Below, one piece after another: positions 4,301 through 45,505 of a stretch of DNA of 64,000 bases. The position numbers were made by a program, and so were the translations under genes. This DNA is from a virus (lineage: Duplodnaviria; Heunggongvirae; Uroviricota; Caudoviricetes): the IMG/VR virus record IMGVR_UViG_3300029852_000006. One strand, 5' to 3'. Numbering within the stretch: position 1 is the stretch's first letter; each line of letters starts with the position of its first letter. The notes beneath the pieces are model-generated. The model ran no database searches and was not told where the DNA came from. It was given only the letters and a program-made list of their open reading frames with translations.

Positions 4301-5641
4301 ATGCCACTCCCCAATTACACCGATATTCTCAACACCATGTCGCCCACCATCACATGGCAGGACAACACCCCATGCCGCACCACTTTCAGAGTAATTTTCA
4401 CCAAGGCTCTGGCCTGCACGGTTTATCCCCGCCTCACCGCAGGCAAAACCCTTGCCATCCTTGGCGATGATTCCGGCCTCCAGCCTTCCACTAACCCGAA
4501 TGAATCCCTTCTGTTCTTTGTCACCGATAAAGCCGCCATCCCCGATTCCATCCAGGAAGTCAAGGATATTGGCGCTTATCTCTCTGATAAGTACAAAGTT
4601 TATCAGGATGCAGTCGCCCGTATCACCATCGTCCAGTTCCAGCGCGACGGCGACCTCTACAGCAGTGTTTTTTACCAGCGTGTTGCCTCAGCCATGCCCC
4701 GCCTGCTGCCCTGGCTCTTCAAGGATCACCCCCTCACCTCCGATGAGCTCGCTTACCTCCGCGCCCTCTCCACCCCGGATACTGGCTCGGAAACCCTCGC
4801 CCGGATGGCGGAGCCTCTTTATAACAAAACCGATCTGCCCTCCAGAGCCGTAGATAAAGCGATTGAATCCCTCTTCAAAGGTACCATTGACCGCCGTAAA
4901 GCGGATCTCAGGCGCTCTATTGAAAACCTTTACCGTCAGTTGAAAGAAACCCGCGCCCGTATCTCTGGAATTTTTACCAACATCACCAGCATCAACTGTG
5001 AGCTGACCGGCCTTGACTCCAAAGATGAATCTACCTTTATCACGGAACTCAAGGATTATCTCCACACCCAAAAAGGTATTTCCGTCGATACTGACGATGG
5101 AGCGCTTCTCCTCACCATCACCACATTCCTCTCCAACTATGACCCGGATGATGTCGAAACCTTTATCTTCAACAGTTACCACCCCTATGAGGATCTTACC
5201 GGCGAAGAAGAACACGATGTCCGCATCCTTTTCCGGGCTGTGTTCATTGACCATATCTTCAAAATCAAACTCGCTGCCACCTATAAGCTTAATTACGACT
5301 GCCATGTCACAGCCATGTCCGATGAAATCAATATGAACGTTGTTCAGGCTGTTCCCAACCCTCACATCAATCATCACTCCTGCCTCGGTAACTATGAACC
5401 CATGCTGGAGGATGCCGAGGATCGCCGAGATTTTATTGCCGCCATTGCCATCTGTCAGCAGAGCGCCAGCAGCATGAACCTCGTCGAAACTATCTCCACC
5501 AAATATTTCTTTAATGATTTTGCCACCGCCTATCACACGGATATCCCCGTCATCCTGACCGCCGCCGGTGAATCCATCACCCCCAAGCAGGCCATTGAAC
5601 AGCTCAAATCCGCAAATGATTCCGTTAAGGAAGGAGAATAA
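4301..5641 (+). CDS. hypothetical protein (446 aa); possible E2-like component
   Basis: Sits at the E2 position between candidate Ubl and JAB/E1. Segment 'PNPHINHHSCLGNYEP' loosely resembles the UBC HPN...C-L active-site region. Speculative. Confidence 0.5.
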   Translation: MPLPNYTDILNTMSPTITWQDNTPCRTTFRVIFTKALACTVYPRLTAGKTLAILGDDSGLQPSTNPNESLLFFVTDKAAIPDSIQEVKDIGAYLSDKYKVYQDAVARITIVQFQRDGDLYSSVFYQRVASAMPRLLPWLFKDHPLTSDELAYLRALSTPDTGSETLARMAEPLYNKTDLPSRAVDKAIESLFKGTIDRRKADLRRSIENLYRQLKETRARISGIFTNITSINCELTGLDSKDESTFITELKDYLHTQKGISVDTDDGALLLTITTFLSNYDPDDVETFIFNSYHPYEDLTGEEEHDVRILFRAVFIDHIFKIKLAATYKLNYDCHVTAMSDEINMNVVQAVPNPHINHHSCLGNYEPMLEDAEDRRDFIAAIAICQQSASSMNLVETISTKYFFNDFATAYHTDIPVILTAAGESITPKQAIEQLKSANDSVKEGE

Positions 5642-5643
5642 CC

Positions 5644-6408
5644 ATGCAAGTTATCCACATTGATCAGACCGCTCTGGATGCCGCCATCGAACTCTATCGC
5701 CAGCAGCTCCTCGCCGGCTCTGTTAAGCTCGCAAAAACCAAAGCAAAAGATAAAATCAACATCAATTTTACCGCCGATGCTTGGGCCAAACAGTCCCGCC
5801 TCATTGATGATTTCACTTCCGAAGTCGCCTGGCACGGCCTCATGCGCCAGCTTTCCCCCACCGAGTATGAAATCTATGATATCCTCGTCTACCCCCAGCA
5901 GGTTACTGGTGTCACCGTCGAAACCGACCAGGATAAATACAACGACTGGCTGCTCTCCCAGCCCGATGAAATCTTCAACAACATCCGCTACCAGGCCCAC
6001 AGCCACGTCAACATGTCCCCTTCCCCTTCCGGCGTTGATGACGAAAACGAGTCCAAAATTGTCAATAAGCTCAAGGGCAATGATTTCTACCTCTTCATGA
6101 TCTGGAACAAGCGCGGCGAGTTCACCGCCCGCCTGTATGACTACGCCGCCAACAAAATCTACGATAAAGATGATATCTCTGTCACCTACACCGATACCCT
6201 CTCCGATTTTGCCGCCACCGCTCAGTCCCTTGTCACCAAAGCTCTGCCCGTCTATTCCGCAGCGCACCCTCCCGTCAAGCCCACCGGCGGTACCGTGCCC
6301 CACGTCGTCTGGGATAACGCCGCCCGCTGCTGGATGGACGATGACGGCAATTATTACGACCACTACCCCACCTATTACGATTATCACACCAACGGAGGTG
6401 CCTTATGA
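5644..6408 (+). CDS. JAB/MPN (JAMM) metallopeptidase-like protein
   Basis: Exact JAMM signature H-S-H-x7-S-x2-D ('HSHVNMSPSPSGVDD') with upstream Glu. Confidence 0.7.
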   Translation: MQVIHIDQTALDAAIELYRQQLLAGSVKLAKTKAKDKININFTADAWAKQSRLIDDFTSEVAWHGLMRQLSPTEYEIYDILVYPQQVTGVTVETDQDKYNDWLLSQPDEIFNNIRYQAHSHVNMSPSPSGVDDENESKIVNKLKGNDFYLFMIWNKRGEFTARLYDYAANKIYDKDDISVTYTDTLSDFAATAQSLVTKALPVYSAAHPPVKPTGGTVPHVVWDNAARCWMDDDGNYYDHYPTYYDYHTNGGAL

Positions 6409-7088
6409 ATCTTGCCAAAAGCCTGGATGTCTTCTCCCCGCATGATGTCAAAGGCCGCATCCACATCATTGGCTGCGGTTCGGTCGGCTCCACCATCGCG
6501 GAGCTTCTTGCCCGCTATGGCCTGACCAACTTCACCCTCTACGATTTTGATACGGTGGAAAAGAAAAACATCGTCAACCAGATGTTTTTTGATCCTCAGG
6601 TCGGCCAGCCCAAAGTGGAAGCCCTCCGCGATATTCTCTGTGCCATCAACCCGGAGGCCAAAAATGATATCCGTTTGGAACCTTCCGGCTGGAACGGCCA
6701 GCCCCTCTCCGGTTACGTTTTTCTTGCCGTGGATAACATCGAGATCCGCCAGAAAATCGTGGATGCCAACCGCTTTAACACCTTCATTAAAGCCATGTTT
6801 GATGTCCGCACTGCCCTCTTTGACGCCCAGCTCTATGCCGCTGATTGGTCAGACCCCAAACAGGTCGCGGAATTTCGCGCCACAATGAACTTCACCCATG
6901 CCGAAGCCACCGCCCAGGTTCCCGTTTCGGCCTGCGGCACTACCCTCGGTGTTGCCCCCACGGTTCGCGTTGCCGCCTGTTATACCGTCACCAACTTCCA
7001 AAACTTCATCAAAAAAGGCGAGCTGATCCATACCGGTCTCTCCGCCCCCTTCAACCTCCAGGGTGAATCCGCTTTCCTCGGTCTGTAA
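6405..7088 (+). CDS. E1-like ThiF/MoeB-family adenylyltransferase
   Basis: Rossmann motif 'IIGCGSVGSTIA' (GxGxxG) followed by 'YDFDTVEKKNIVNQ' matching the ThiF/E1 D-x-D-x-V-x-x-S/K-N-x-x-R/N-Q block. Confidence 0.75.
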   Translation: MNLAKSLDVFSPHDVKGRIHIIGCGSVGSTIAELLARYGLTNFTLYDFDTVEKKNIVNQMFFDPQVGQPKVEALRDILCAINPEAKNDIRLEPSGWNGQPLSGYVFLAVDNIEIRQKIVDANRFNTFIKAMFDVRTALFDAQLYAADWSDPKQVAEFRATMNFTHAEATAQVPVSACGTTLGVAPTVRVAACYTVTNFQNFIKKGELIHTGLSAPFNLQGESAFLGL

Positions 7089-7478
7089 CCCTGTCGTCTT
7101 AGCGTTCCATTAAATTTCGTTTGTGTTGTATACTGTAAGCTTTTTCGCTTCAGGCTCTTCGGTCATATCCAAGAGTACGAATTTGTTACCCCGACCCACC
7201 CCTCCACCTGATCCTGGCCAGCGGATCTGACGGTGACGCCCGAACACATATCGCATCGTCCAAACCTTTTGACACACACCGACTGGTAGAAGAATACTAA
7301 GCCCAATCAATGAAAATTCGAAGATCAGGGTCTAATGGTAGCACAAAGTCCCATCAGAAATCAGTTCAAAAGCTCAACAGTTCAAGGGCATTCTCTTCGG
7401 AATCGGCGACGGAGTCGTTCCTGCAGCCACTATCTCCCATCAGAACACAAACATAACCCTCACATAAGGAGCACTCGT
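7089..7478 (+). ncRNA. candidate structured ncRNA upstream of the reverse transcriptase
   Basis: 390-nt ORF-free stretch in a tightly packed region. Contains the conserved hairpin motif (7155-7185) and a C-rich tract; 9-nt inverted match gtttgtgtt / aacacaaac near its two ends. Confidence 0.3.
7155..7185 (+). repeat. conserved hairpin motif copy 1 (stem ctctt/aagag, loop CGGTCATATCC, then tacGAATTTG)
   Basis: One of 7 copies sharing the loop CGGTYATAYCC closed by co-varying stems. Confidence 0.6.
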
Positions 7479-8669
7479 ATGGTTTACATCACTTATAACT
7501 GCCCGGAACGTTTCCGGGAAATGACGTTTGAAGAACTCCTCCGCGGGGATTTTAACCTCGCAAACCTTTCCACCGGCGGCCACGGTGCTACCCGTACCGT
7601 CATCTGCAACAAAGTTCCTCCCCGCATCATGCGCATCACCAAGGTGGAGCAAATGATCCTCCAGCTCCAGGCGTTCAACCAGCAGTATGAATCCCTTCGC
7701 CTCACCACTCCCCGTTCCAGCCTGTACAACCATTTCCCCATCCCCAAAGCCTCCGGCGGTCTCCGCTGGATCGATGCCCCCAATTCCGACTTAATGAAAG
7801 CCCTCAAGGAACTCAAAACCCTCTTTCAGTCCTGGATGTTTGCCGACCACCACACCTGCGCTTTCGCCTATGTCGAGGACCGCAGCGTCCTCTCCGCCGC
7901 CAAACGTCACCAAAAGTTCGGTGCCTGGTGGTTCGCCCACTTTGATTTCCATGGCTTCTTCCCCTCCACCACGCCGGAGTTTGTCCTCTCCCAGTTTGAA
8001 CTCATTTATCCTTTCAACCTCATCCTTGCCAGCCCCACCGGCCGCGCGGAACTGATCAAAGCCCTTGACCTCTGTTTCCTTAACGGAGCATTGCCGCAGG
8101 GCACCCCCATCTCCCCGCTCATCACCAACATCATGATGATCCCCTTTGACCACGCCTTCGCCAAGGCTGTCAACCATTTTGAATCCGGCAAGCATAACCC
8201 GGACGGAACCCCCATCACCGACCGCCTCTGCTACACCCGCTACGCCGATGATATCATCGTCTCCTGCAAAGTTATCTTCAATTTCCATGCTGTCGAGCGC
8301 CTTATTGTCCAGCTTCTCTCCCAAATGAACGCCCCCTTCACCCTCAATGAAAGCAAAACCCAGTTCCGCTCCCGCGCCGGCCGCAACTGGATTCTTGGCG
8401 TCATGCTCAATAAGGATAACCAAATTACAGTCGGCTACCGCAAAAATAAAATCTTCAAAGCCACCATTGATACCTACTTCCGCGATAAACAAAAGGGCAA
8501 AAAGTGGCCGGATGAAGACCTTCAGTCCTTCCAGGGCAACATTACCTGGTTCAAGGATGTCCAGCCCGATACCACCAAATACATTATCCAAAAGTATAAC
8601 GCCAAATATGGCCTTGACCTTGAATCCTGTATCAAGGCCGATCTCGCCCCGCCCAGCGTAACCGCATAA
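7479..8669 (+). CDS. reverse transcriptase (stand-alone; retron/DRT/Abi-like class undetermined)
   Basis: RT motifs 1 (IPKASGGLRWI), 2 (DFHGFFPS), 4 (LPQGTPISPLITNI), 5 (YTRYADDIIVS), 7 (LNESKT). RBS AAGGAG before ATG 7479 (six-frame ORF extends to 7335). No maturase or endonuclease domain. Confidence 0.85.
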   Translation: MVYITYNCPERFREMTFEELLRGDFNLANLSTGGHGATRTVICNKVPPRIMRITKVEQMILQLQAFNQQYESLRLTTPRSSLYNHFPIPKASGGLRWIDAPNSDLMKALKELKTLFQSWMFADHHTCAFAYVEDRSVLSAAKRHQKFGAWWFAHFDFHGFFPSTTPEFVLSQFELIYPFNLILASPTGRAELIKALDLCFLNGALPQGTPISPLITNIMMIPFDHAFAKAVNHFESGKHNPDGTPITDRLCYTRYADDIIVSCKVIFNFHAVERLIVQLLSQMNAPFTLNESKTQFRSRAGRNWILGVMLNKDNQITVGYRKNKIFKATIDTYFRDKQKGKKWPDEDLQSFQGNITWFKDVQPDTTKYIIQKYNAKYGLDLESCIKADLAPPSVTA

Positions 8670-8740
8670 TCCAAAAAAAAATCAATTTGTTTTCAAAGGT
8701 AAAGTTTCGTTTTGATTTTATTTCAAGTCAAAGCCAAACA

Positions 8741-8771
8741 CCCTCCGGTTATATCCGAGGGTTTGAATTTG
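8741..8771 (+). repeat. conserved hairpin motif copy 2 (stem ccctc/gaggg)
   Basis: Compensatory stem change relative to copy 1, identical loop family, followed by tttGAATTTG. Confidence 0.6.
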
Positions 8772-9231
8772 TCCCCCTGTCCCACCCCCTGGCCAGGACT
8801 CACTCACGTCGCAGCAGCGACTGCATCGAGTCATCGTACTCCCAGACACACGATGGGTCGCCCCACAGCGCATCAGAAAGGGCGGGCCAATGCCCCAGTC
8901 TTTAACAAAATAAGCGAGCAACATCGGAGGCCGCCCCAATCAAACTCAGAAGATCAGTCATCACCACCATCCGATTCCGGTGGCTGCCTCTCATCAGCTT
9001 TCACAAATTGATTTTTATTTTCTCCATTCCGCCCCATGGTTCCGGGGCATTCCCAGGCGCTTCAGTTGTTTCTTCTTTTCTTAGCAGCTCGTTGCGCCCC
9101 CTGTTCGTGCGCCTGGTAAACGCACGGTCATGGTTTTACTTTCCTTTCGCTGGGCCTCCGGCCATCCCAATGGTTGGAGCGCCTGGTAATACCCCGGAAC
9201 CCGCCCACAACAATGAATTCAGGTGATTTTT

Positions 9232-11601: not shown

Positions 11602-11730
11602 ATACCACGGCGCTTCCATGGCCGATTTTGCCAGCCACACCCCGCCGTGTCCCAACGATCAACCTCAAAAATAAAACAGCTTAACAAGGTAAAGAATCAT
11701 TTGCTGATTATATTTTCAGTTCATGCTTCA

Positions 11731-11762
11731 CTCTTCGGTTATATCCAAGAGTTCGAATTTGT
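11731..11762 (+). repeat. conserved hairpin motif copy 3 (stem ctctt/aagag)
   Basis: First 35 nt nearly identical to copy 1, then diverges into a C-rich tract. Confidence 0.6.
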
Positions 11763-11980
11763 TACCGCCTCCCCCTCCTGGATCGCAGGCGCCTGCTGCA
11801 GACTGAGCGCCTCATCGCGCGCTCGCGATGACACCAAAAGACCCACCACAGAGCCAAAATAAGCGATAACACGTCATGCGCAAGACAAACTTTTGATCCA
11901 CCCCAAAAAGACCGTTTCCCACCAGCTTGTTCCCTGTTTTATTTTGAATCTATTTTTACCATCAGAAAGGATCAACCATT

Positions 11981-20367: not shown

Positions 20368-21906
20368 ATGCCTACTGTATATGTGTTAAACAAAGATGGT
20401 AAACCTTTGATGCCAACGACTCGCTGTATGCATGTGCGCCATCTCCTTAAGAATGGAAAAGCACGAGTCGTAAAATCAAAACCGTTTACTATCCAGTTGC
20501 TTTATGAAACTGATGATGTAGTTCAACCCCTATATTTGGGTATCGACCCTGGTAGGACCAACATCGGCGTTGCCGTTGTCAAAGCAGACGGGGCGGCGGT
20601 CTTTACTGCGCATCTTGAGACCCGCAATAAGGAAGTCCCTAAGCTGATGAAAAAGCGTAAGGAATCACGCTGCGCAAGACGCACCAACGGCAGACGCTGC
20701 CGCCGTCAGCGGAGAGCAAAAACCAACGGCACTATTTCTAAGAAGTGCGTAAAGCAAACCACTGCTCAAAATGGTAGTGTTAGTAAACGTGCAAAAGAAA
20801 TTGGCGTTATCAAGCGCCATCTTCCGGGTTGTGAGAAAGATGTACTTTGCATTGGTATCAAAAACAAAGAGGCAAAGTTCACCAATCGTGCAAGACCGGA
20901 AGGATGGCTTACGCCTACTGCAAATCAGTTGCTACAGACACACATCAACTTGGTGAAGAAAATTCAGAAGTTTCTTCCTATCAGTGATGTTGTGCTTGAA
21001 GTCAACAAATTTGCGTTCATGCAGCTTGACAACCCTAACATTCAGAAATGGCAGTATCAGCAAGGCCCACTCTACCAAAAAGGGAGCCTTGAAAATGCTG
21101 TTTCTGAAATGCAGGAACACCATTGCCTATTTTGTGAGAAGCCCATTGAACATTACCATCATGTAGTACCAAAATCCGAAAACGGTAGCAACACTATCGC
21201 CAATATTGTTGGTCTATGCACGGAGCATCACAATCTCGTTCATAAGGATGCTACCTGGCAAAAGAAACTCGCCAAAGAAAAAGTCGGACTCGTCAAAAAG
21301 TACAGTGCTTTGAGCGTATTGAATCAAATCATTCCGGCATTGACGAAAGAGATGAATTCTCTTTTTCCGAAGCATTTCTTTGTGACCAATGGTAAAAGTA
21401 CCTACGACTATCGTACAGCGCACGGTGTGAGTAAAGACCATTGGCTTGATGCTTATTGCATTGCCTGTTCTGTTTTACCCAACGATGTTTGTGATAGCAA
21501 TATAAACAGCCATGTGCCATACGAATTAAAGCAGTTCCGCCGCCATGATAGAAGAGTGCTACACAAAGCGAACATGAGCCGCGTGTACACACTCAATGGC
21601 AAAACAGTGGCAACGAATCGCCACAAGGCTATTAAACAGACTACCGACAGTTTGGAAGAGTTTCGTCAAAGCCATCCAGGTGATGTTTGCAAGCTCAAGG
21701 TGAAAGAGCATCATCCTGCATATAGAAACTTGAACCGTAACTATCCAGGAAGTGTATTTCTTGTTGACGGGCAAGTTCATGTGATGCAAGGAGTTAGCGG
21801 CTCACATAATGGCAAAGCAGATGGATATTACAATACGAATGGCAACGCATATCCATATTATAAATGTAAATTTGTTGTCAAAAACGAAGGAATTGTATTT
21901 GCATAA
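20368..21906 (+). CDS. iscB: IscB (OMEGA RNA-guided nuclease, Cas9 ancestor)
   Basis: N-terminal PLMP motif (GKPLMPT), RuvC-I 'LGIDPGRTNIGVAVV', HNH 'CLFCEKPIEHYHHVVPKSENGSNTIANIVGLCTEHH', RuvC-III 'HWLDAYCIA'. RBS AAAGGAGGG before ATG 20368. Confidence 0.8.
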   Translation: MPTVYVLNKDGKPLMPTTRCMHVRHLLKNGKARVVKSKPFTIQLLYETDDVVQPLYLGIDPGRTNIGVAVVKADGAAVFTAHLETRNKEVPKLMKKRKESRCARRTNGRRCRRQRRAKTNGTISKKCVKQTTAQNGSVSKRAKEIGVIKRHLPGCEKDVLCIGIKNKEAKFTNRARPEGWLTPTANQLLQTHINLVKKIQKFLPISDVVLEVNKFAFMQLDNPNIQKWQYQQGPLYQKGSLENAVSEMQEHHCLFCEKPIEHYHHVVPKSENGSNTIANIVGLCTEHHNLVHKDATWQKKLAKEKVGLVKKYSALSVLNQIIPALTKEMNSLFPKHFFVTNGKSTYDYRTAHGVSKDHWLDAYCIACSVLPNDVCDSNINSHVPYELKQFRRHDRRVLHKANMSRVYTLNGKTVATNRHKAIKQTTDSLEEFRQSHPGDVCKLKVKEHHPAYRNLNRNYPGSVFLVDGQVHVMQGVSGSHNGKADGYYNTNGNAYPYYKCKFVVKNEGIVFA

Positions 21907-28835: not shown

Positions 28836-30242
28836 GTGCCTTGCATGAGCACTTGTGCTTGTGTTTTCAGTAAAAGCGGCAAACGCCTGATGCCGACCAT
28901 CCGTCTTGGCAAGGTGCGCCATCTTCTGAAAGACGGAAAGGCAAAAATTATTAAGCATCATCCGTTTACCATCCAGTTGCTGTATGACAGCGAAACGAAT
29001 ATTCAACCCATCGAAATCTGCGAGGATGTGGGTTACAACTACATTGGCATCAGCGTGAAAAGCCAATCTCACGAATATGTGTCTGTACAATATGATACAT
29101 TGCAGGATGAGAAAGACTGCCACGATAGTTGTCGTAAGATGCGCCGCATCCGTAGAAACAGGTTACGTTACCGCAAGCCGCGTTTCGACAATCGTAAGCG
29201 TAATAAAGGTTGGCTTGCGCCCTCTCTTGAACATAAGAAAGAACTCAATGTTAATGTCATCAAGATGTATTGCAAGGTAGTTCCTATTACGCATGTAACT
29301 GTTGAAGTTGGTTCTTTCGACACAATGCTTGTAAAAGCCATCCAAGAGGGTAAAGCTATACCGGAAGGCGCAGATTATCAAAAAGGCCCTCGCTACAATT
29401 TGGCCACACTACGTGAAGCGGTTTTTTATCGCGATAAATATACCTGCCAAGTTTGCGGGCGCAAGGCTAATGAAGGTGCAATTCTGCATGTGCATCACAT
29501 GTTCTACTGGAAGGGTCGTCACGGCAATAGTCTCAGCGAACTTCTTACTGTGTGTGAAAAATGCCATACACCGGCTAACCACCAACAAGGCGGCAAGCTC
29601 TACAGATTTGGTGAAAATATAAAGTTCGCCAATCTTTCCGGTGCGGCATTTATGAATACTGTGCGCTGGCAAATCGTCAATGAACTTTACACTGCTTTTG
29701 GCAAGCTGTTCGTCACATTCACTTATGGTGCGATGACCAAGGAAAAGCGGATTGCCTTTCATCTTGAAAAGTGTCATAACAACGATGCGTATGCAATGGG
29801 GAACTTTCATCCAGTTGACCGCTGCGCGTTTGAACATTATAAAAAGGTGAAACGCAATAACCGCATTCTCGAAAAATTTCATGACTCCCAGTACATTGAC
29901 ATCCGCACCGGCAAAGTGGCTAACGGCAGAAGCCTCTTTAACGGTAGAATCAACCGCAGCCATAAAAAGAATTCCGAGAACCTGCACAAGTATCGTGGGA
30001 AAAGGACTCGTAAAGGCTACCGTGCTCTACGCCGCAAAAAGGTAGCCCTCAATCCCGGTGACTTGGTTTCTCTTAACGGAGAAATTCTTGTTGTCCATAG
30101 CACTCATGCCGGAAAGAATGGTTATGTAGGCGTAGAATTCAAAGCTCCATCAAAAAGCGGCAAAAAGTCTGCCAGTCTCAAAAAACTAAAAATTGTTAAA
30201 ACATCAAACTCCATGCGCTCTGCGTGGACTAAAGTATCTTAA
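28836..30242 (+). CDS. iscB: IscB (OMEGA RNA-guided nuclease), second copy
   Basis: PLMP-like 'GKRLMPT', RuvC-I-like 'DVGYNYIGISV', HNH 'CQVCGRK...HVHHMFYWKGRHGN...CEKCH', RuvC-III 'HNNDAYAMGNF'; basic C-terminus. Confidence 0.8.
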   Translation: MPCMSTCACVFSKSGKRLMPTIRLGKVRHLLKDGKAKIIKHHPFTIQLLYDSETNIQPIEICEDVGYNYIGISVKSQSHEYVSVQYDTLQDEKDCHDSCRKMRRIRRNRLRYRKPRFDNRKRNKGWLAPSLEHKKELNVNVIKMYCKVVPITHVTVEVGSFDTMLVKAIQEGKAIPEGADYQKGPRYNLATLREAVFYRDKYTCQVCGRKANEGAILHVHHMFYWKGRHGNSLSELLTVCEKCHTPANHQQGGKLYRFGENIKFANLSGAAFMNTVRWQIVNELYTAFGKLFVTFTYGAMTKEKRIAFHLEKCHNNDAYAMGNFHPVDRCAFEHYKKVKRNNRILEKFHDSQYIDIRTGKVANGRSLFNGRINRSHKKNSENLHKYRGKRTRKGYRALRRKKVALNPGDLVSLNGEILVVHSTHAGKNGYVGVEFKAPSKSGKKSASLKKLKIVKTSNSMRSAWTKVS

Positions 30243-30336: not shown

Positions 30337-30429
30337 GCTCCCATATCTCAATGGTAGAGAAGCGGCCTTATAGCCCGCCTAGCACCAGATTAGTGCGTAA
30401 TCCCTGTTCAAGTCAGGGTGGGGGTACCA
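30337..30429 (+). tRNA. type-II (long variable arm) tRNA with atypical anticodon arm; identity uncertain
   Basis: Acceptor gctccca/tgggggt (two G-U), D-stem tctc/gaga, variable arm gcac/gtgc, T-arm ccctg-ttcaagt-caggg, 3' CCA. Anticodon stem has only 4 clean pairs around the sequence ccttatagc. Confidence 0.45.
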
Positions 30430-40859: not shown

Positions 40860-41473
40860 TAAAAACGCCATCAATTTATGATCATTCAAGAGATATAACT
40901 CATTTTAATACAAAAAGAAATTCATATGTCTTATCTGACGATGGAACATATTATATCGGTACAACCCGTGCTGGTTATGAATTTTATTTTTCCAAAGAAG
41001 ATTATTCCCTTATCTCTTCGTACTGTTGGCATAAACATCAAGATGGTTATTTACGAACTCTTTATACTTATTATCTTGACGAAAATAATATTCGGCATAA
41101 TCACTACGTCTTGATGCATCGGCTTTTATTTGGAGAGGAAAATATTCCGGCCAAAATGGAAATTGATCATATTAACGGCAAGCCATACGATAACCGACGT
41201 TCAAATTTGCGGTTAGTTACACATGCCGATAATATGAAAAACCAAGCAATGCGTGCGGACAATAAAAGCGGTTATGCCGACGTCTGGGAAAATAAAGGCT
41301 GGGGCAAACCGTGGACAGCACAAATTACCTGTAATGGCATTCGGCATTACCTTGGCCATTTTGATACTCCAGAAGAAGCTGCAAAAGCAGTGGCTGCAGA
41401 ACGAGAACAATCTTTTGCTGAGTTCTCACGAGCATCGGAGGATATGTTCAATGGTACACGGAGGCCATGCTAA
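40860..41473 (+). CDS. HNH (HNH_3) + AP2-domain homing endonuclease; start codon unclear, possibly decaying
   Basis: 'DGTYYIGTTRAGYEFYFSKEDYSLISSYCWHK ... MEIDHINGKPYDNRRSNLRLVTHADN' (HNH_3) followed by AP2 'SGYADVWENKGWGKPWTAQITCNGIRHYLGHFDTPEEAAKA'. Continuous frame from TGA at ~40857 has no ATG until TTG/ATG at 41111; the ATG at 40926 is in a different frame. Confidence 0.6.
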
Positions 41474-44400
41474 TGCAGAACTACCATAAGCACACCTGCT
41501 GCTCCAACATCTATACCCCCGATTCTCCCGCCACCTATGAACAATATGCTAAACGCGCTGTTGAACTCGGTCAGAACATCCTTTGCTCTTTGGAACACGG
41601 ATGGCAGGGTAAATATCATGAATGCCGTGAAATCGCTATCAAGTATGGCCTCAAGTTTATCTTTGGCACCGAAGCTTACTGGGTCAAAGACCGGCACGAA
41701 AAAGACCGTACCAACTGCCATATTGTTCTTCTCGCCAAAAACGAAAACGGTCGTCAGTGGATCAACGAAGTTCTATCTACCGCCAATGAGGACGGTTATT
41801 ACTATCGCCCACGTCTGGATGAAGAACTCCTGTTCCAACTGCCGCCCAACGATGTTTTTGTTACTTCTGCCTGCGTTGCATTCTGGCATTATGAACCTAA
41901 TTATGTTGAAAATCTTGTCCTTCGCCTACATAACCATTTTAAGGATAACTTCATGCTTGAAATTCAGGCTCATAATACCGATAAGCAAAAGCAGCTAAAC
42001 GCAAGAATCTTGGAGCTTTCCAAAAAGTACGGTATCCAGATGATTGTTGGCCTTGACAGCCACTATATCTACCCGGAACAATCTGTTGAACGTGATGCTC
42101 TTCTTGCCGCCAGTGATACCCACTATGACGACGAGGATGGCTGGTATATGGACTATCCAAATGAAGCTACCGTTCGCCAGCGTTTTGCCGAACAGGGCGT
42201 CGTCCCGCCAGAATCAGTTGACCAGGCCATTCGCAACACAGATCTGATTTGTGATTTTGAAGATTATGATAGCGAGGTTTTTCAAACCAACCGCAAACTT
42301 CCCACCCTGTACCCGGATAAAACCCCAGAGGAAAAATATCAAATCTACAATCGCTTAATCAGTTCCAAATTCCGCGAGTACATGAAACACGTTCCGCTAG
42401 AGGATTATCAGCGTTACTTTGATGGCGTCAAGATGGAAGTTCATACTTACCGCGATACCGGCATGGTGGATTATCCACTAATTGACTATCAAATCGTCAA
42501 ACGCGGCATTAAATATGGTGGCATCATCACAAACACTGGCCGTGGTTCTGCTGTCAGCTACTTTACCAATACCCTCTGTGGTTTCAGTAAAGTTGACCGT
42601 TTCAAATCTCCCATTCGTCTGTACCCAGAACGATTCCTCTCTACTACTCGTATTATTCAGACGAACAGCCTGCCCGATATCGACCAGAATATCAGTGCGC
42701 AGGAACCATTCGAGCGTGCCCAGCGCGAAATCCTCGGTGCAGACCATGCTTACCCCATGATTGCCTTTGGCACCATGAAAAAGAAAGCTGCATTTAAGAT
42801 GTACGCCCGTGCTCAAAGGCTGGACTTTGAAACTGCCAATAAAATCAGCGACCAGCTTGAAAAGTACGAAGTTGCTCTCAAATATGCCGATGATGACAAT
42901 AAAGCCGATATCAGTATCTACGATTACGTTGACCCAGAATATCAGGATCTTGTCAAACGCAGCGAGGTTTACTGGGGCTTAATTGTATCCAAATCAAAAG
43001 CTCCCTGTGCCTATCTTCTTTATCAGGGCAGCATCCGCCGCCAGATTGGTCTTATCAAATGTAAAAGTGAAACAACCAAAAAGGAATATATTACCACTGT
43101 CATTGATGGCGCTGTGGCTGAAAAATATAAGTTCCTTAAAAATGACTGGCTGATTGTTGATACCGTAGCTCTTACCGCAGCAGTATTCAAGCGTATCGGC
43201 ATGGAACCTCTGACCGTTGATGAACTATCAGAAAAAGTCAAGGATAATCCAGCCGTCTGGAATATCTATGCCAGCGGTCTCACCTGCGGTGTCAACCAGT
43301 GCGAAAAAGCTTCCACCACTCAAAAACTCATGCGTTACAAACCACAAAACGTTTCTGAGCTGTCCGCTTTTGTTGCTGCCATCCGCCCCGGTTTCAAGTC
43401 CATGTATCCCACATTTGAGCGCCGCGTTCCGTTTGATTACGGCGTTCCTGTCATTGACAACCTGATTCAAACAAAAGAGTTCCCATACTCCTTTATTCTG
43501 TATCAGGAAAATTTGATGACGATTCTGAACTTTGCCGGCTTCCCCATGGACCAGTGTTACGGCATCATCAAGGATATTGCCAAAAAGCATCCTGAAAAGG
43601 TTAAGCCGTTAAAGGCACAGTTTATCTCCGGCCTCTGTGATAAGCTTCAAGGCCAATGTCCACCGGGCAAAGAGCCGGTTGAAATCGCAAATCAGATTTG
43701 GCAGATTATTAACGACGCTACAGCGTACAGTTTCAACTCATCGCATTCAGCCTGTATGGCCTATGATTCCCTCTATAATGCCTGGCAGAAAGCCACATAT
43801 CCCTATGAGTTTTACGAGGTCTGCCTGCAGCACTTCTCCAATAAAGGCAAAAAGGAAAAAGTAGCTGCTCTCAAAGCTGAAATGCTCCGCGGTTTTGGTA
43901 TTCATGAAGGCCCTATCCTGTGGGGGCATGATAACCGCAAGTTTACCGCTGATAAAGAAAACCACGCCATTGACCCTTCGCTTCTTTCCATCAAAGGTTT
44001 AAGCCAAGGTTGTGCCAATGACCTCTGGAAAATGTATCAGTCCGGTAAATTCACCGATTTTTACTCTCTCTGGAAAGAAATGTCCCATACCCGCAGCTTA
44101 AACTCCGCCAAGATCGAAACGCTTGTCCTGCTGGATTATTTTAAGCCATTCGCTGGCGGCAATAAGATTCTCAAGTTTATCAGTGCGTGTAATGACCTCT
44201 ATGGCCGTTCTCAATTTCCAAAGGACACTAAGTCTTCGTACAAACCTTATATTGAAGCTTATTCCACCACATCTGACCAGCTTAAAACCTATAAAGATTT
44301 CCAGTATGATTCTGCTCTTCAAGCCATCTGGAATGATCTGCCGGATGAACCGCTGCATGTTAAGCAGGTCTTAGATGCCCAGAGCGAGTACCTTGGCTGC

Positions 44401-44685
44401 CTCCAATACCAAAACCCTTCTCTCGCTTCCACCTACCACTACATTCTCTCTATTGACGGCAAATATAAAAACAAGACCATCGCACTGTACCAGCTTGCAA
44501 CCGGTCAAACCGTTAATTTCAAAATCCGTCCCTCCACCATGGATCAAAACCCCATCGCCAAAGGCGATATCATCAAGGTTCTTGGCACCAAGCAGGAGGG
44601 CAAGTGGTCCCGCACCGATGCCGGTTGGGTCCAGTCCACAACGGATTTCAACACCTTCCTTTATAAATACAGCCATGTACGTTAA
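41467..44685 (+). CDS. DNA polymerase III alpha-like (DnaE/PolC family) replicative polymerase
   Basis: N-terminal PHP domain 'YHKHTCCSNIYTPDS', >1000 aa, polymerase core composition; overlaps stop of HNH gene. Confidence 0.8.
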   Translation: MLMQNYHKHTCCSNIYTPDSPATYEQYAKRAVELGQNILCSLEHGWQGKYHECREIAIKYGLKFIFGTEAYWVKDRHEKDRTNCHIVLLAKNENGRQWINEVLSTANEDGYYYRPRLDEELLFQLPPNDVFVTSACVAFWHYEPNYVENLVLRLHNHFKDNFMLEIQAHNTDKQKQLNARILELSKKYGIQMIVGLDSHYIYPEQSVERDALLAASDTHYDDEDGWYMDYPNEATVRQRFAEQGVVPPESVDQAIRNTDLICDFEDYDSEVFQTNRKLPTLYPDKTPEEKYQIYNRLISSKFREYMKHVPLEDYQRYFDGVKMEVHTYRDTGMVDYPLIDYQIVKRGIKYGGIITNTGRGSAVSYFTNTLCGFSKVDRFKSPIRLYPERFLSTTRIIQTNSLPDIDQNISAQEPFERAQREILGADHAYPMIAFGTMKKKAAFKMYARAQRLDFETANKISDQLEKYEVALKYADDDNKADISIYDYVDPEYQDLVKRSEVYWGLIVSKSKAPCAYLLYQGSIRRQIGLIKCKSETTKKEYITTVIDGAVAEKYKFLKNDWLIVDTVALTAAVFKRIGMEPLTVDELSEKVKDNPAVWNIYASGLTCGVNQCEKASTTQKLMRYKPQNVSELSAFVAAIRPGFKSMYPTFERRVPFDYGVPVIDNLIQTKEFPYSFILYQENLMTILNFAGFPMDQCYGIIKDIAKKHPEKVKPLKAQFISGLCDKLQGQCPPGKEPVEIANQIWQIINDATAYSFNSSHSACMAYDSLYNAWQKATYPYEFYEVCLQHFSNKGKKEKVAALKAEMLRGFGIHEGPILWGHDNRKFTADKENHAIDPSLLSIKGLSQGCANDLWKMYQSGKFTDFYSLWKEMSHTRSLNSAKIETLVLLDYFKPFAGGNKILKFISACNDLYGRSQFPKDTKSSYKPYIEAYSTTSDQLKTYKDFQYDSALQAIWNDLPDEPLHVKQVLDAQSEYLGCLQYQNPSLASTYHYILSIDGKYKNKTIALYQLATGQTVNFKIRPSTMDQNPIAKGDIIKVLGTKQEGKWSRTDAGWVQSTTDFNTFLYKYSHVR

Positions 44686-44744
44686 TTTTTTTCTGGTTAT
44701 GGCGGTTCTCAATACTGCCATCAGTGTTATTGCCACTATTTTCG

Positions 44745-44880
44745 GTAACGTCACCAAAAGTTCGATGTTTGGTGATACGCCCATTTTGATTTCCACGGCT
44801 TCTTCCCCTCCCAGTTTGAACTCATCTATCCCTTCAACCTCATTCTCGCCTGGCCGGTGGAACGGTTCAAAGCCCTCAAC
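44745..44880 (+). pseudogene. degenerate fragment homologous to an internal part of the RT gene (RT 7903-8070)
   Basis: ~85% nt identity incl. 'aacgtcaccaaaagttcg' and 'ttgatttccacggcttcttcccctcc...cagtttgaactcat.tatcc.ttcaacctcat'. In-frame 24-nt deletion relative to RT gives HFDFHGFFPS-QFELIYPFNLILA; no complete ORF. Confidence 0.5.
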
Positions 44881-45085
44881 CAATGACAATCGGTTTTTTT
44901 TATCTCGTGATGCCTTGTACAAACTCTATCTCACAGCCATCGTTTTCAGCTTGTTTTGGTGGTTCCTCTCCTAAGGGGGTGATGTTATCGAACCAGTCTT
45001 TGTTAAATCCGCCCTTGAAACTTTTACTATCCTGATTGATACCCGTGAGCACGAAACCTCGGCGCTCACTCAACGCATTCAGCAA

Positions 45086-45505
45086 ATGGGCTGCCCAGTC
45101 GAACGGCAAAAGCTCAATTTTGGCGATTATTCTGCCAAGGTCATCTTGCCCACCAGCGTTCCCTACAGCCTGGAAAATATCGTCGTGATCGAACGGAAGA
45201 TGTCCAGCGACGAAATCGCAAATTGCTTCACCTCCCAGCGTGCTCGCTTTACCCGTGAATTTGAACGCGCCAAAGCAGCCGGTGCCCGTACCTATCTGCT
45301 TGTTGAGCGCACTACCTGGGAAATGCTTTACGCCGGTACATACCGCAGCAAAATGTCCCCTGTCGCCATGGTGGCCAGCCTCACAACCTGGCTTGCCCGC
45401 TATGACTGCAAGCTCATTTTCTGCGAACCTCAAACCTCCGGCAAGCTCATCCATGATATCCTCTACCGCGAAATGAAACAGCACCTGGAGGGGGTTCAGC
45501 CATGA
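45086..45505 (+). CDS. ERCC4-type (XPF/Mus81-like) nuclease, putative junction resolvase
   Basis: 'GDYSAKVI ... VVIERKMSSDEIANCFTS' matches ERCC4 GDx(n)ERKxxxD motif. Confidence 0.55.
   Translation: MGCPVERQKLNFGDYSAKVILPTSVPYSLENIVVIERKMSSDEIANCFTSQRARFTREFERAKAAGARTYLLVERTTWEMLYAGTYRSKMSPVAMVASLTTWLARYDCKLIFCEPQTSGKLIHDILYREMKQHLEGVQP

Follow-up and report, generated by a model that had tools for sequence, protein, structure and literature searches.

Templated or “filler” insertions, events of the MMEJ and MMBIR type, and the capture of DNA fragments by end joining make up the class of known events with which the locus described here is compared. Cases mediated by a reverse transcriptase (RT) are exemplified by the capture of Ty1 cDNA at double-strand breaks in yeast and by the processed pseudogenes that LINEs generate. 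Retron-type RTs are known neither to copy mRNA nor to have their products integrated into a genome, and the class is thought to copy dedicated ncRNA only. In bacteria, a group II intron-like RT, G2L4, acts in MMEJ (doi 10.1101/2022.03.14.484287).

The locus belongs to a tailed-phage genome of ~146 kb, of which one stretch of 64,000 nucleotides (IMG/VR record IMGVR_UViG_3300029852_000006), referred to as the window, was analyzed. It holds a partial copy of the phage’s own retron-type RT gene, located 37 kb from its donor. The feature behaves like a templated insertion, or like a fragment captured where a break was repaired, and adds a further example to a known type of event. As with templated insertions, a short copy from the same genome occupies a site for which a precise empty form exists (14 of 54 alleles), the donor is intact and unchanged, and a single site with a single pair of junctions is seen. 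Little or no junction homology, unexplained junction bases, and a small internal inversion and deletion are further points of likeness. Unlike polymerase-theta-type filler, the copy is long, at 159 nt, and unlike the usual templated insertions it occurs in a phage genome, has the genome’s own RT gene as donor, is kept in frame, and is found at high frequency. The aspects that appear unusual are this choice of donor and the predicted translation of the copy, out of frame, within a putative small membrane-protein gene.

The locus is like RT-mediated cDNA capture in that an RT-encoding genome carries, at an ectopic position, a partial and non-functional sense copy of a transcribed sequence; a preference of the RT for its own mRNA would explain the donor. 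It is unlike the Ty1 and LINE cases in that it lacks poly(A) and a target-site duplication and shows nothing indicative of a spliced or processed RNA intermediate, and unlike these and G2L4 in that the RT is retron-type. A further difference from this insert is that G2L4 fills gaps and does not insert cDNA. The arrangement also recalls the TR/VR pairs of DGRs, with an RT-encoding phage and two imperfect repeats of ~130 nt, one of them within a protein-coding gene. In DGR terms, however, the “template” would lie inside the RT ORF, where the only repeat partner is found. Moreover, mismatches are not adenine-specific, the two repeats are not updated in concert, the RT falls outside the DGR clade, and the copy is dispensable and sits mid-gene, not at a 3′ end. 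Finally, as in overprinting, DNA specifying RT residues in one frame would be translated in another within a different protein. Unlike overprinting, the two readings occur at two separate loci, one being a copy, and the new peptide is without sign of selection on its sequence.

On the evidence set out below, the fragment is probably an insertion of single origin that is polymorphic in the phage population; it is neither a second RT gene nor an active target of the RT. Under the most likely reading, a gene fragment was copied ectopically, survives by luck of frame, and is translated out of frame as new protein sequence. It would represent a small, datable case of coding sequence derived from recycled DNA, for which the sequences before and after insertion are known exactly from the population data. 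With the RT gene as donor, the question also arises whether the retron-type RTs of phages occasionally write cDNA into DNA.

The copied segment and its donor

The features involved are the following.

7479..8669, + strand: retron-type reverse transcriptase, 396 aa, intact (Pfam RVT_1, 9.5e-15; PADLOC retron RT_II-A, 1e-43)
7903..8070, + strand: donor segment within the RT gene, coding for RHQKF...DFHGFFPS...KALD in the N-terminal part of the RT domain
44747..44881, + strand: RT-derived insert, 135 nt, homologous to RT gene 7903-8070 (blastn E=2e-21)
44807..44808, + strand: site of a 24-nt in-frame deletion (CTCCACCACGCCGGCGTTTGTCCT) between CTCC direct repeats (alignments)
44851..44866, + strand: rearranged 3′ part of the insert (alignments)

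An uninterrupted RT ORF is found both in the window and in relatives, and the sequence of the window shows the YADD box of the catalytic motif at about 8241-8255. The RT protein matches the NCBIfam retron St85 family at 1.8e-49, which is under the family cutoff; the best matches are retron families, and the RT is not of the DGR clade. A retron ncRNA was sought upstream of the RT gene and not found, as a single fold gave z=+1.7, RNAalifold returned no shared structure, and Rfam returned no match. Among GenBank phages there was no DNA match, and the best polymerase match was 42% aa. A literature search on phage-encoded retron-type RTs and on RT-linked templated insertions in phages returned nothing directly relevant.

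When positions 7200-8800 were compared with the whole window by blastn, a single strong non-self match was obtained on the same strand, pairing 44747-44876 with RT-gene positions 7903-8065 (E=2e-21). This alignment has 163 columns, of which 33 are gap columns and 115 are identities, corresponding to 88% over 130 aligned bases. The gaps consist of a 24-nt block after 44807 plus 8+1 = 9 nt toward the 3′ end. The copy of an internal RT-gene segment that the original prediction had placed near 44745-44880 is thus real and well above chance-level similarity.

The HFDFHGFFPS codons are still present in the RT frame of the fragment, and reading the copy in that frame still gives ...YAHFDFHGFFPSQFELIYPFNLILA.... 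Three stop codons close this frame: a TAA (cgg TAA cgt) that abuts the homology on its 5′ side, a middle TGA that arose from tgg tgg to tgg TGA, and a TGA at the 3′ end. The sole open frame across the region, 44675-44974, differs from that of the RT. Retention of the DFHGFFPS codons, the 24-nt gap, and the lack of an intact RT-frame ORF had all been noticed beforehand, and each is upheld by the alignment and the RT-frame translation. Recoding of TGA as Trp was considered and rejected on the grounds that a TAA lies directly 5′ of the copy and that both a start codon and a suppressor tRNA are absent.

Toward the 3′ end of the insert, the RT sequence AGCCCCACCGGCCA is replaced by TGGCCGGTGGGGC in most insert alleles and by TGGCCGGTGGAAC in the window. 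TGGCCGGTGGGGC matches the reverse complement of the RT sequence at 13 of 14 positions, with ~9 nt lost beside it, and this rearrangement is common to all alleles. The 13-nt inversion could possibly be aligned instead as a 9-nt deletion plus ~6 substitutions, which is less economical.

In a self-blast of the window, no second distant gene-fragment duplicate was found, and the other repeats were a paralogous gene pair and short regulatory repeats. This search for donor/insert pairs covered 64 kb of the ~146-kb genome.

Filled and empty alleles among relatives

Queries with the RT and ERCC4 proteins each retrieved a clade of ~90–150-kb IMG/VR contigs at 96–99% aa identity, plus remoter clades. 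In addition, metagenome contigs were scanned with a 26-nt flank pattern, which yielded 23 further loci on ~146-kb human-gut contigs; in these, the two main states recurred without any longer form, and 7 of the 23 were empty. Together, 54 complete alleles (39 distinct sequences) were available, 40 filled and 14 empty. All but one of the filled alleles carry the 135-nt form (39 alleles), the exception being L080, a 159-nt form that retains the 24 nt. The empty alleles in IMG/VR are L082, L083, L086, L095, L096, L105, and L112. Their junction is precise, with ...TTTTCAG followed directly by (T/C)GATGACGATCGG... (also written as ...CAG followed by (T/C)GATG(A/C)CGATCGG). Both junctions are identical in all 40 filled alleles.

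Other searches led to the same site. For example, a 29-nt pattern common to the RT gene and the fragment occurs at 55 places in IMG/VR, comprising 34 RT genes and 21 fragments, and the context is identical in 21 of the 21 matches outside RT genes. Likewise, when 21 RT proteins were compared by tblastn with the 1.9 Mb of related DNA that had been fetched, RT-like fragments were recovered at this site only, corresponding to RT residues of about 143–197. In a sister clade (75–77% aa with the polymerase C-terminal query, 62% for the RT), a small ORF with two TM segments occupies the same position and contains no RT-derived sequence. Neither this clade nor those with RTs at 37–62% identity had other RT-derived inserts in the RT and polymerase neighborhoods covered.

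Since the site and the pair of junctions are the same in every copy, the alignments point to a single insertion event. Its direction would be a gain and not a precise loss, as inferred from parsimony and the sister clade rather than from a rooted tree. The simplest history would consist of one insertion in one lineage of the species, followed by slippage between the CTCC repeats that deleted 24 nt, with L080 having kept the full 159 nt. L105, which is frameshifted by a T6 run, is the only empty allele on a filled-type 5′ haplotype and may represent an infrequent precise deletion. A mobile element, whether a MITE, IS, intron, or homing cassette, was rejected in view of the single site in all genomes and the lack of inverted termini and of an ORF of its own.

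One reading put forward originally was a decayed second RT copy, for which a full paralogous RT gene would once have been present downstream of the polymerase and have been reduced to 135 nt. Many of the differences between fragment and RT are synonymous in the RT frame and at first look like coding constraint, but the same differences also segregate among RT alleles. The 40 filled alleles, all with identical junctions and at most 159 nt of RT-derived sequence, together with the precise empty alleles, argue against such decay. Moreover, the ORF around the fragment also occurs without it, at 53 aa, and has the two-TM counterpart in the sister clade. An intact second RT, which had been suggested as something to look for, was found at this locus in none of the relatives, where the longest RT-derived stretch is 159 nt. 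Remnants of other RT regions are missing as well, so an RT pseudogene was rejected. A decayed second RT gene is accordingly very improbable.

The RT alleles themselves are polymorphic at many of the sites where the window’s fragment and its own RT differ, so part of the 12% divergence is not decay. Compared with the closest RT alleles (L015/L016/L030), the fragment shows 5–9 differences over 118–142 sites, versus 10–14 with the RT of its own genome, and two of these three closest alleles come from phages with an empty site. Being nearer to the RT alleles of other phages, the fragment gives no indication of concerted evolution. In 15 genomes for which both alleles could be paired, no association was found between the fragment and the RT allele of the same genome, and gene conversion or re-copying from the resident RT was rejected on this basis.

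These comparisons bear on the proposal that the fragment is a sequence on which the RT acts at present, either as a DGR-like variable repeat templated in the RT gene or as a retron-like template or target RNA. An RT is indeed encoded in the same genome, and fragment alleles differ from one another at ~20 sites. The diversity (pi) of the insert among filled alleles is 0.045, however, versus 0.011–0.039 in the rest of the small ORF that hosts it, 0.021 in the ERCC4 gene, and 0.02–0.04 for the flanks as a whole. It is thus like its neighbors, and hypermutation was rejected. The fixed differences between fragment and RT are G>A, T>C, and C>T, while the polymorphic sites of the fragment fall at template G, A, C, and T and are neither A-specific nor biased toward third positions. 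A DGR variable repeat was rejected because differences are not confined to template adenines and because the best matches of the RT are retron families, not DGR-type enzymes.

The RNA-based versions of the proposal fare no better. The insert region has no significant fold (z=+0.31), no terminator that uses its T-run, and no Rfam match, leading to rejection of a functional RNA or terminator; a retron ncRNA (msr-msd) was rejected on the same fold and Rfam results and on its 37-kb distance from the RT. The insert is also missing from 26% of alleles despite the presence of the RT, and its own RT allele is not tracked. As a sequence that is not hypervariable, not adenine-specific, unstructured, and closest to other RTs, the fragment is not being acted on by the RT now, and the contrary reading, offered as one of three in the original prediction, can be given hardly any credence. 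At present, drift of the fragment is uncoupled from the RT gene.

The host ORF and its flanking genes

The insertion site lies in a small ORF between two recognizable genes.

41467..44685, + strand: DNA polymerase III alpha (Pfam), upstream of the insertion site
44675..44974, + strand: small ORF hosting the insert, 99 aa (translation and hydropathy), whose ATG overlaps the end of the polymerase gene
44987..45505, + strand: ERCC4-type nuclease (Pfam ERCC4; PHROG 3490, 5e-36)

Hydrophobic N- and C-terminal segments of the small ORF constitute two predicted TM helices. The ORF has no family match and no clear Shine-Dalgarno sequence, and it is regarded as putatively coding by its conserved frame and hydrophobicity. 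The product of the empty allele reads MYVNF...SSDDDRFLSRD...WWFLS and is 53 aa long, as compared with 98–99 aa in alleles with 135 nt of insert and 106 aa in the 159-nt allele. The insert, 44747..44881, encodes residues of about 25–69 in a frame other than that of the RT, where it reads as a Ser/Thr/Pro-rich loop of 44–53 aa. The copy would have landed in sense orientation in the loop-coding middle of the two-TM ORF. At least 35 blocks of public assemblies contain a gene call for precisely this 99-aa product.

No interruption of the small ORF is seen in 36 of the 40 filled alleles and in 13 of the 14 empty ones. Exceptions are homopolymer frameshifts, namely T7, T6, or an extra T near the start. 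The T-run comprises 8 in 25 intact alleles and 5 in 11, while a run of 7 yields a frameshift (3 alleles). Length changes (the gain of 159 nt, the loss of 24 nt, and a T-run of either 5 or 8) are all multiples of three, so the host ORF stays open and the RT-derived DNA is read in a shifted frame. This also modifies part of the earlier description, in which the 24-nt loss was a clean in-frame deletion: the deletion stands, but the constraint that explains its length is that of the overlapping small ORF and not that of the RT frame.

Whether the loop itself has been favored was weighed as a separate possibility, in which a Ser/Thr/Pro-rich loop alters the small membrane protein and out-of-frame RT sequence was thereby exapted. 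The filled state is the majority (40/54), the 99-aa product recurs exactly in those assembly blocks, and the frame has been kept through three separate indels. The inserted peptide, NVTKSSM.GDTP.LIST.SSPPSLNSSIPSTSFSPGRW..SKPSTN, nevertheless varies freely, non-singleton polymorphic sites in the insert are distributed over codon positions 1:2:3 as 7:2:5 (counted from variable columns), and a frame open over 44 codons occurs by chance in 21% of shuffles. Together, these provide no evidence of selection on the new loop. Keeping the second TM segment explains the preserved frame equally well, and the frequency of the filled state may reflect hitch-hiking. An adaptive gain of a domain is therefore considered improbable. 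The insert is more readily seen as a passenger in a constrained ORF, and would persist because the frame of its host is kept.

Upstream of the site, the last ~300 codons of the polymerase gene (about 43500-44400) exist in two forms, with 99% or 45% aa identity to the window, in phages that are otherwise 98–99% identical. At about 44400, pi falls sharply. By these alignments, a recombination mosaic boundary is located ~300 nt upstream of the insertion site.

The ERCC4 gene on the other side lacks an ATG, GTG, or TTG start downstream of the in-frame TAA at 44972. It does have a strong Shine-Dalgarno sequence (GGGGGTGA) and a conserved ATC 7 nt after GGGGG, and the same start arrangement is seen in the sister clade (GGAGGTGATTTT ATC). 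The start codon is thus probably a non-canonical ATC at 44987. Public gene calls miss the ERCC4 gene, and a spurious 184-aa ORF on the minus strand is called instead. Annotators are accordingly warned that the adjoining ERCC4 gene escapes gene callers and that the insertion locus itself contains neither a second RT nor a pseudogene.

Origin of the copy and other variable loci

The origin of the insert was examined by comparing an empty allele, the L080 allele, and the closest RT allele. Junction homology amounts to at most 1–3 nt, and 1–2 junction bases are explained by neither partner. There is no target-site duplication, no terminal repeat, and no repeat of >2–3 nt at the junctions. The 10 nt on the 3′ side of the insert include two G-to-A differences that are linked to its presence. 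Taken together, the junctions, the 13-nt inversion, and the 9-nt loss fit a model in which a polymerase switched template and its product was then joined into a break. Approximately 159 nt would have been copied from the internal part of the RT gene, and the copy either patched into a break or made during a template switch in replication.

No sequence feature separates cDNA from DNA as the source. An origin at the DNA level, by capture of a DNA fragment or by replicative template switching, is given about even chances and is held to be somewhat likelier than a cDNA patch. As a control, ~12 other short presence/absence segments in 43 kb compared with close relatives were inspected, and none had a distant donor in the window; events of this type are therefore not numerous, and the RT-derived insert stands alone. 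As a single observation, the use of the RT gene, ~0.8% of the genome, as donor in the only event is suggestive of RT-made cDNA.

The cDNA route would have the phage RT reverse-transcribe part of its own mRNA, by cis preference, mis-priming, or a template switch, with the cDNA patched or ligated into a double-strand break in the small ORF. As the donor, the RT gene itself makes up ~1.2 kb of ~146 kb (about 0.8% by chance), and its fragment is the only distant gene-fragment duplicate in the window. The copy is in sense orientation and its donor region is transcribed. Junctions without homology and with 1–2 unexplained bases are in line with this route, the internal 13-nt inversion and 9-nt loss fit a switch-prone polymerase, and bacterial group II intron-like RTs act in MMEJ break repair (doi 10.1101/2022.03.14.484287). 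Against this stands the fact that small inversions also arise by replicative template switching, and that no hallmark distinguishes a cDNA source from a DNA source. There was only the one event, with no second RT-derived insert at other sites or in the sampled RT-bearing clades, and phages with the same RT (98% aa identity) include ones with empty sites. Moreover, the enzyme is of the retron type, for which neither the copying of mRNA nor the entry of cDNA into DNA is known. Insertion of cDNA is consequently regarded as rather unlikely, if clearly more plausible than either of the two other readings originally proposed. What survives of the idea that the fragment is a footprint of RT-mediated mobility is this weaker form, a single cDNA patch. 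If true, this would provide the first example of a tailed-phage genome with a footprint of cDNA inserted through an RT.

Several other loci in the window are worth recording.

7201-7435, + strand: hypervariable block 1, pi 0.30–0.45
8790-8980, + strand: hypervariable block 2, pi 0.26–0.31
11780-11915, + strand: hypervariable block 3, pi 0.25–0.33
6405-7088, + strand: ThiF/E1-like adenylyltransferase directly upstream of the RT gene, with a weak match to a Cap2-like anti-phage model
28535-28794, + strand: HEARO/omega RNA (Rfam RF02033, 83.4 bits), directly upstream of the IscB gene
28836-30242, + strand: IscB-type protein, 468 aa, with RRXRR and HNH domains
30337-30429, + strand: tRNA-Ile, anticodon TAT, 93 nt (ARAGORN), unusually long

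A nearly invariant element of ~50 nt is present in three copies on the + strand (7157-7202, 8743-8792, and 11729-11781). Its parts are, in order, a hairpin, TWCGAATTTGTYMCC, and a C-rich run, and each copy is directly followed by a sharply bounded, hypervariable non-coding block. For comparison with the values listed for the blocks, pi is 0.02–0.06 in neighboring genes and 0.086 at third codon positions of the RT. Block 1 is the leader of the RT gene. In 29 phages with RT proteins 96–98% identical, it falls into 17 families at 15% divergence; its transition:transversion counts are 38:49, versus 134:21 in the flanks. No shared RNA structure was found in the hypervariable blocks, and their differences are not A-specific. 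In one relative, L038 (two such loci were counted by the indel scan), 122 nt of the RT leader within block 1 (7240-7362) are absent and the RT is 98% identical, so that part of the leader is dispensable. These leader blocks may be more interesting than the fragment. Viewing all three as products of RT-dependent, error-prone re-copying of transcript 5′ regions would be a bolder extension of the cDNA route.

Upstream of the ThiF/E1-like gene, the ORFs at 4301-5641 and 5644-6408 have no family match. The tRNA-Ile at 30337-30429 goes unreported by the Rfam tRNA model at its gathering threshold, and may have an intron or be a false call. The HEARO/omega RNA and the IscB gene, by their family matches, make up a phage-borne RNA-guided nuclease module. 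An IscB/omega-RNA-guided cut at the insertion site was considered, but the bases just 5′ of the HEARO scaffold are, by eye, unlike the target site. Positions 28914-28987 have weak DNA similarity to 20434-20507, and the 561-aa ORF around the latter is a presence/absence segment in relatives.
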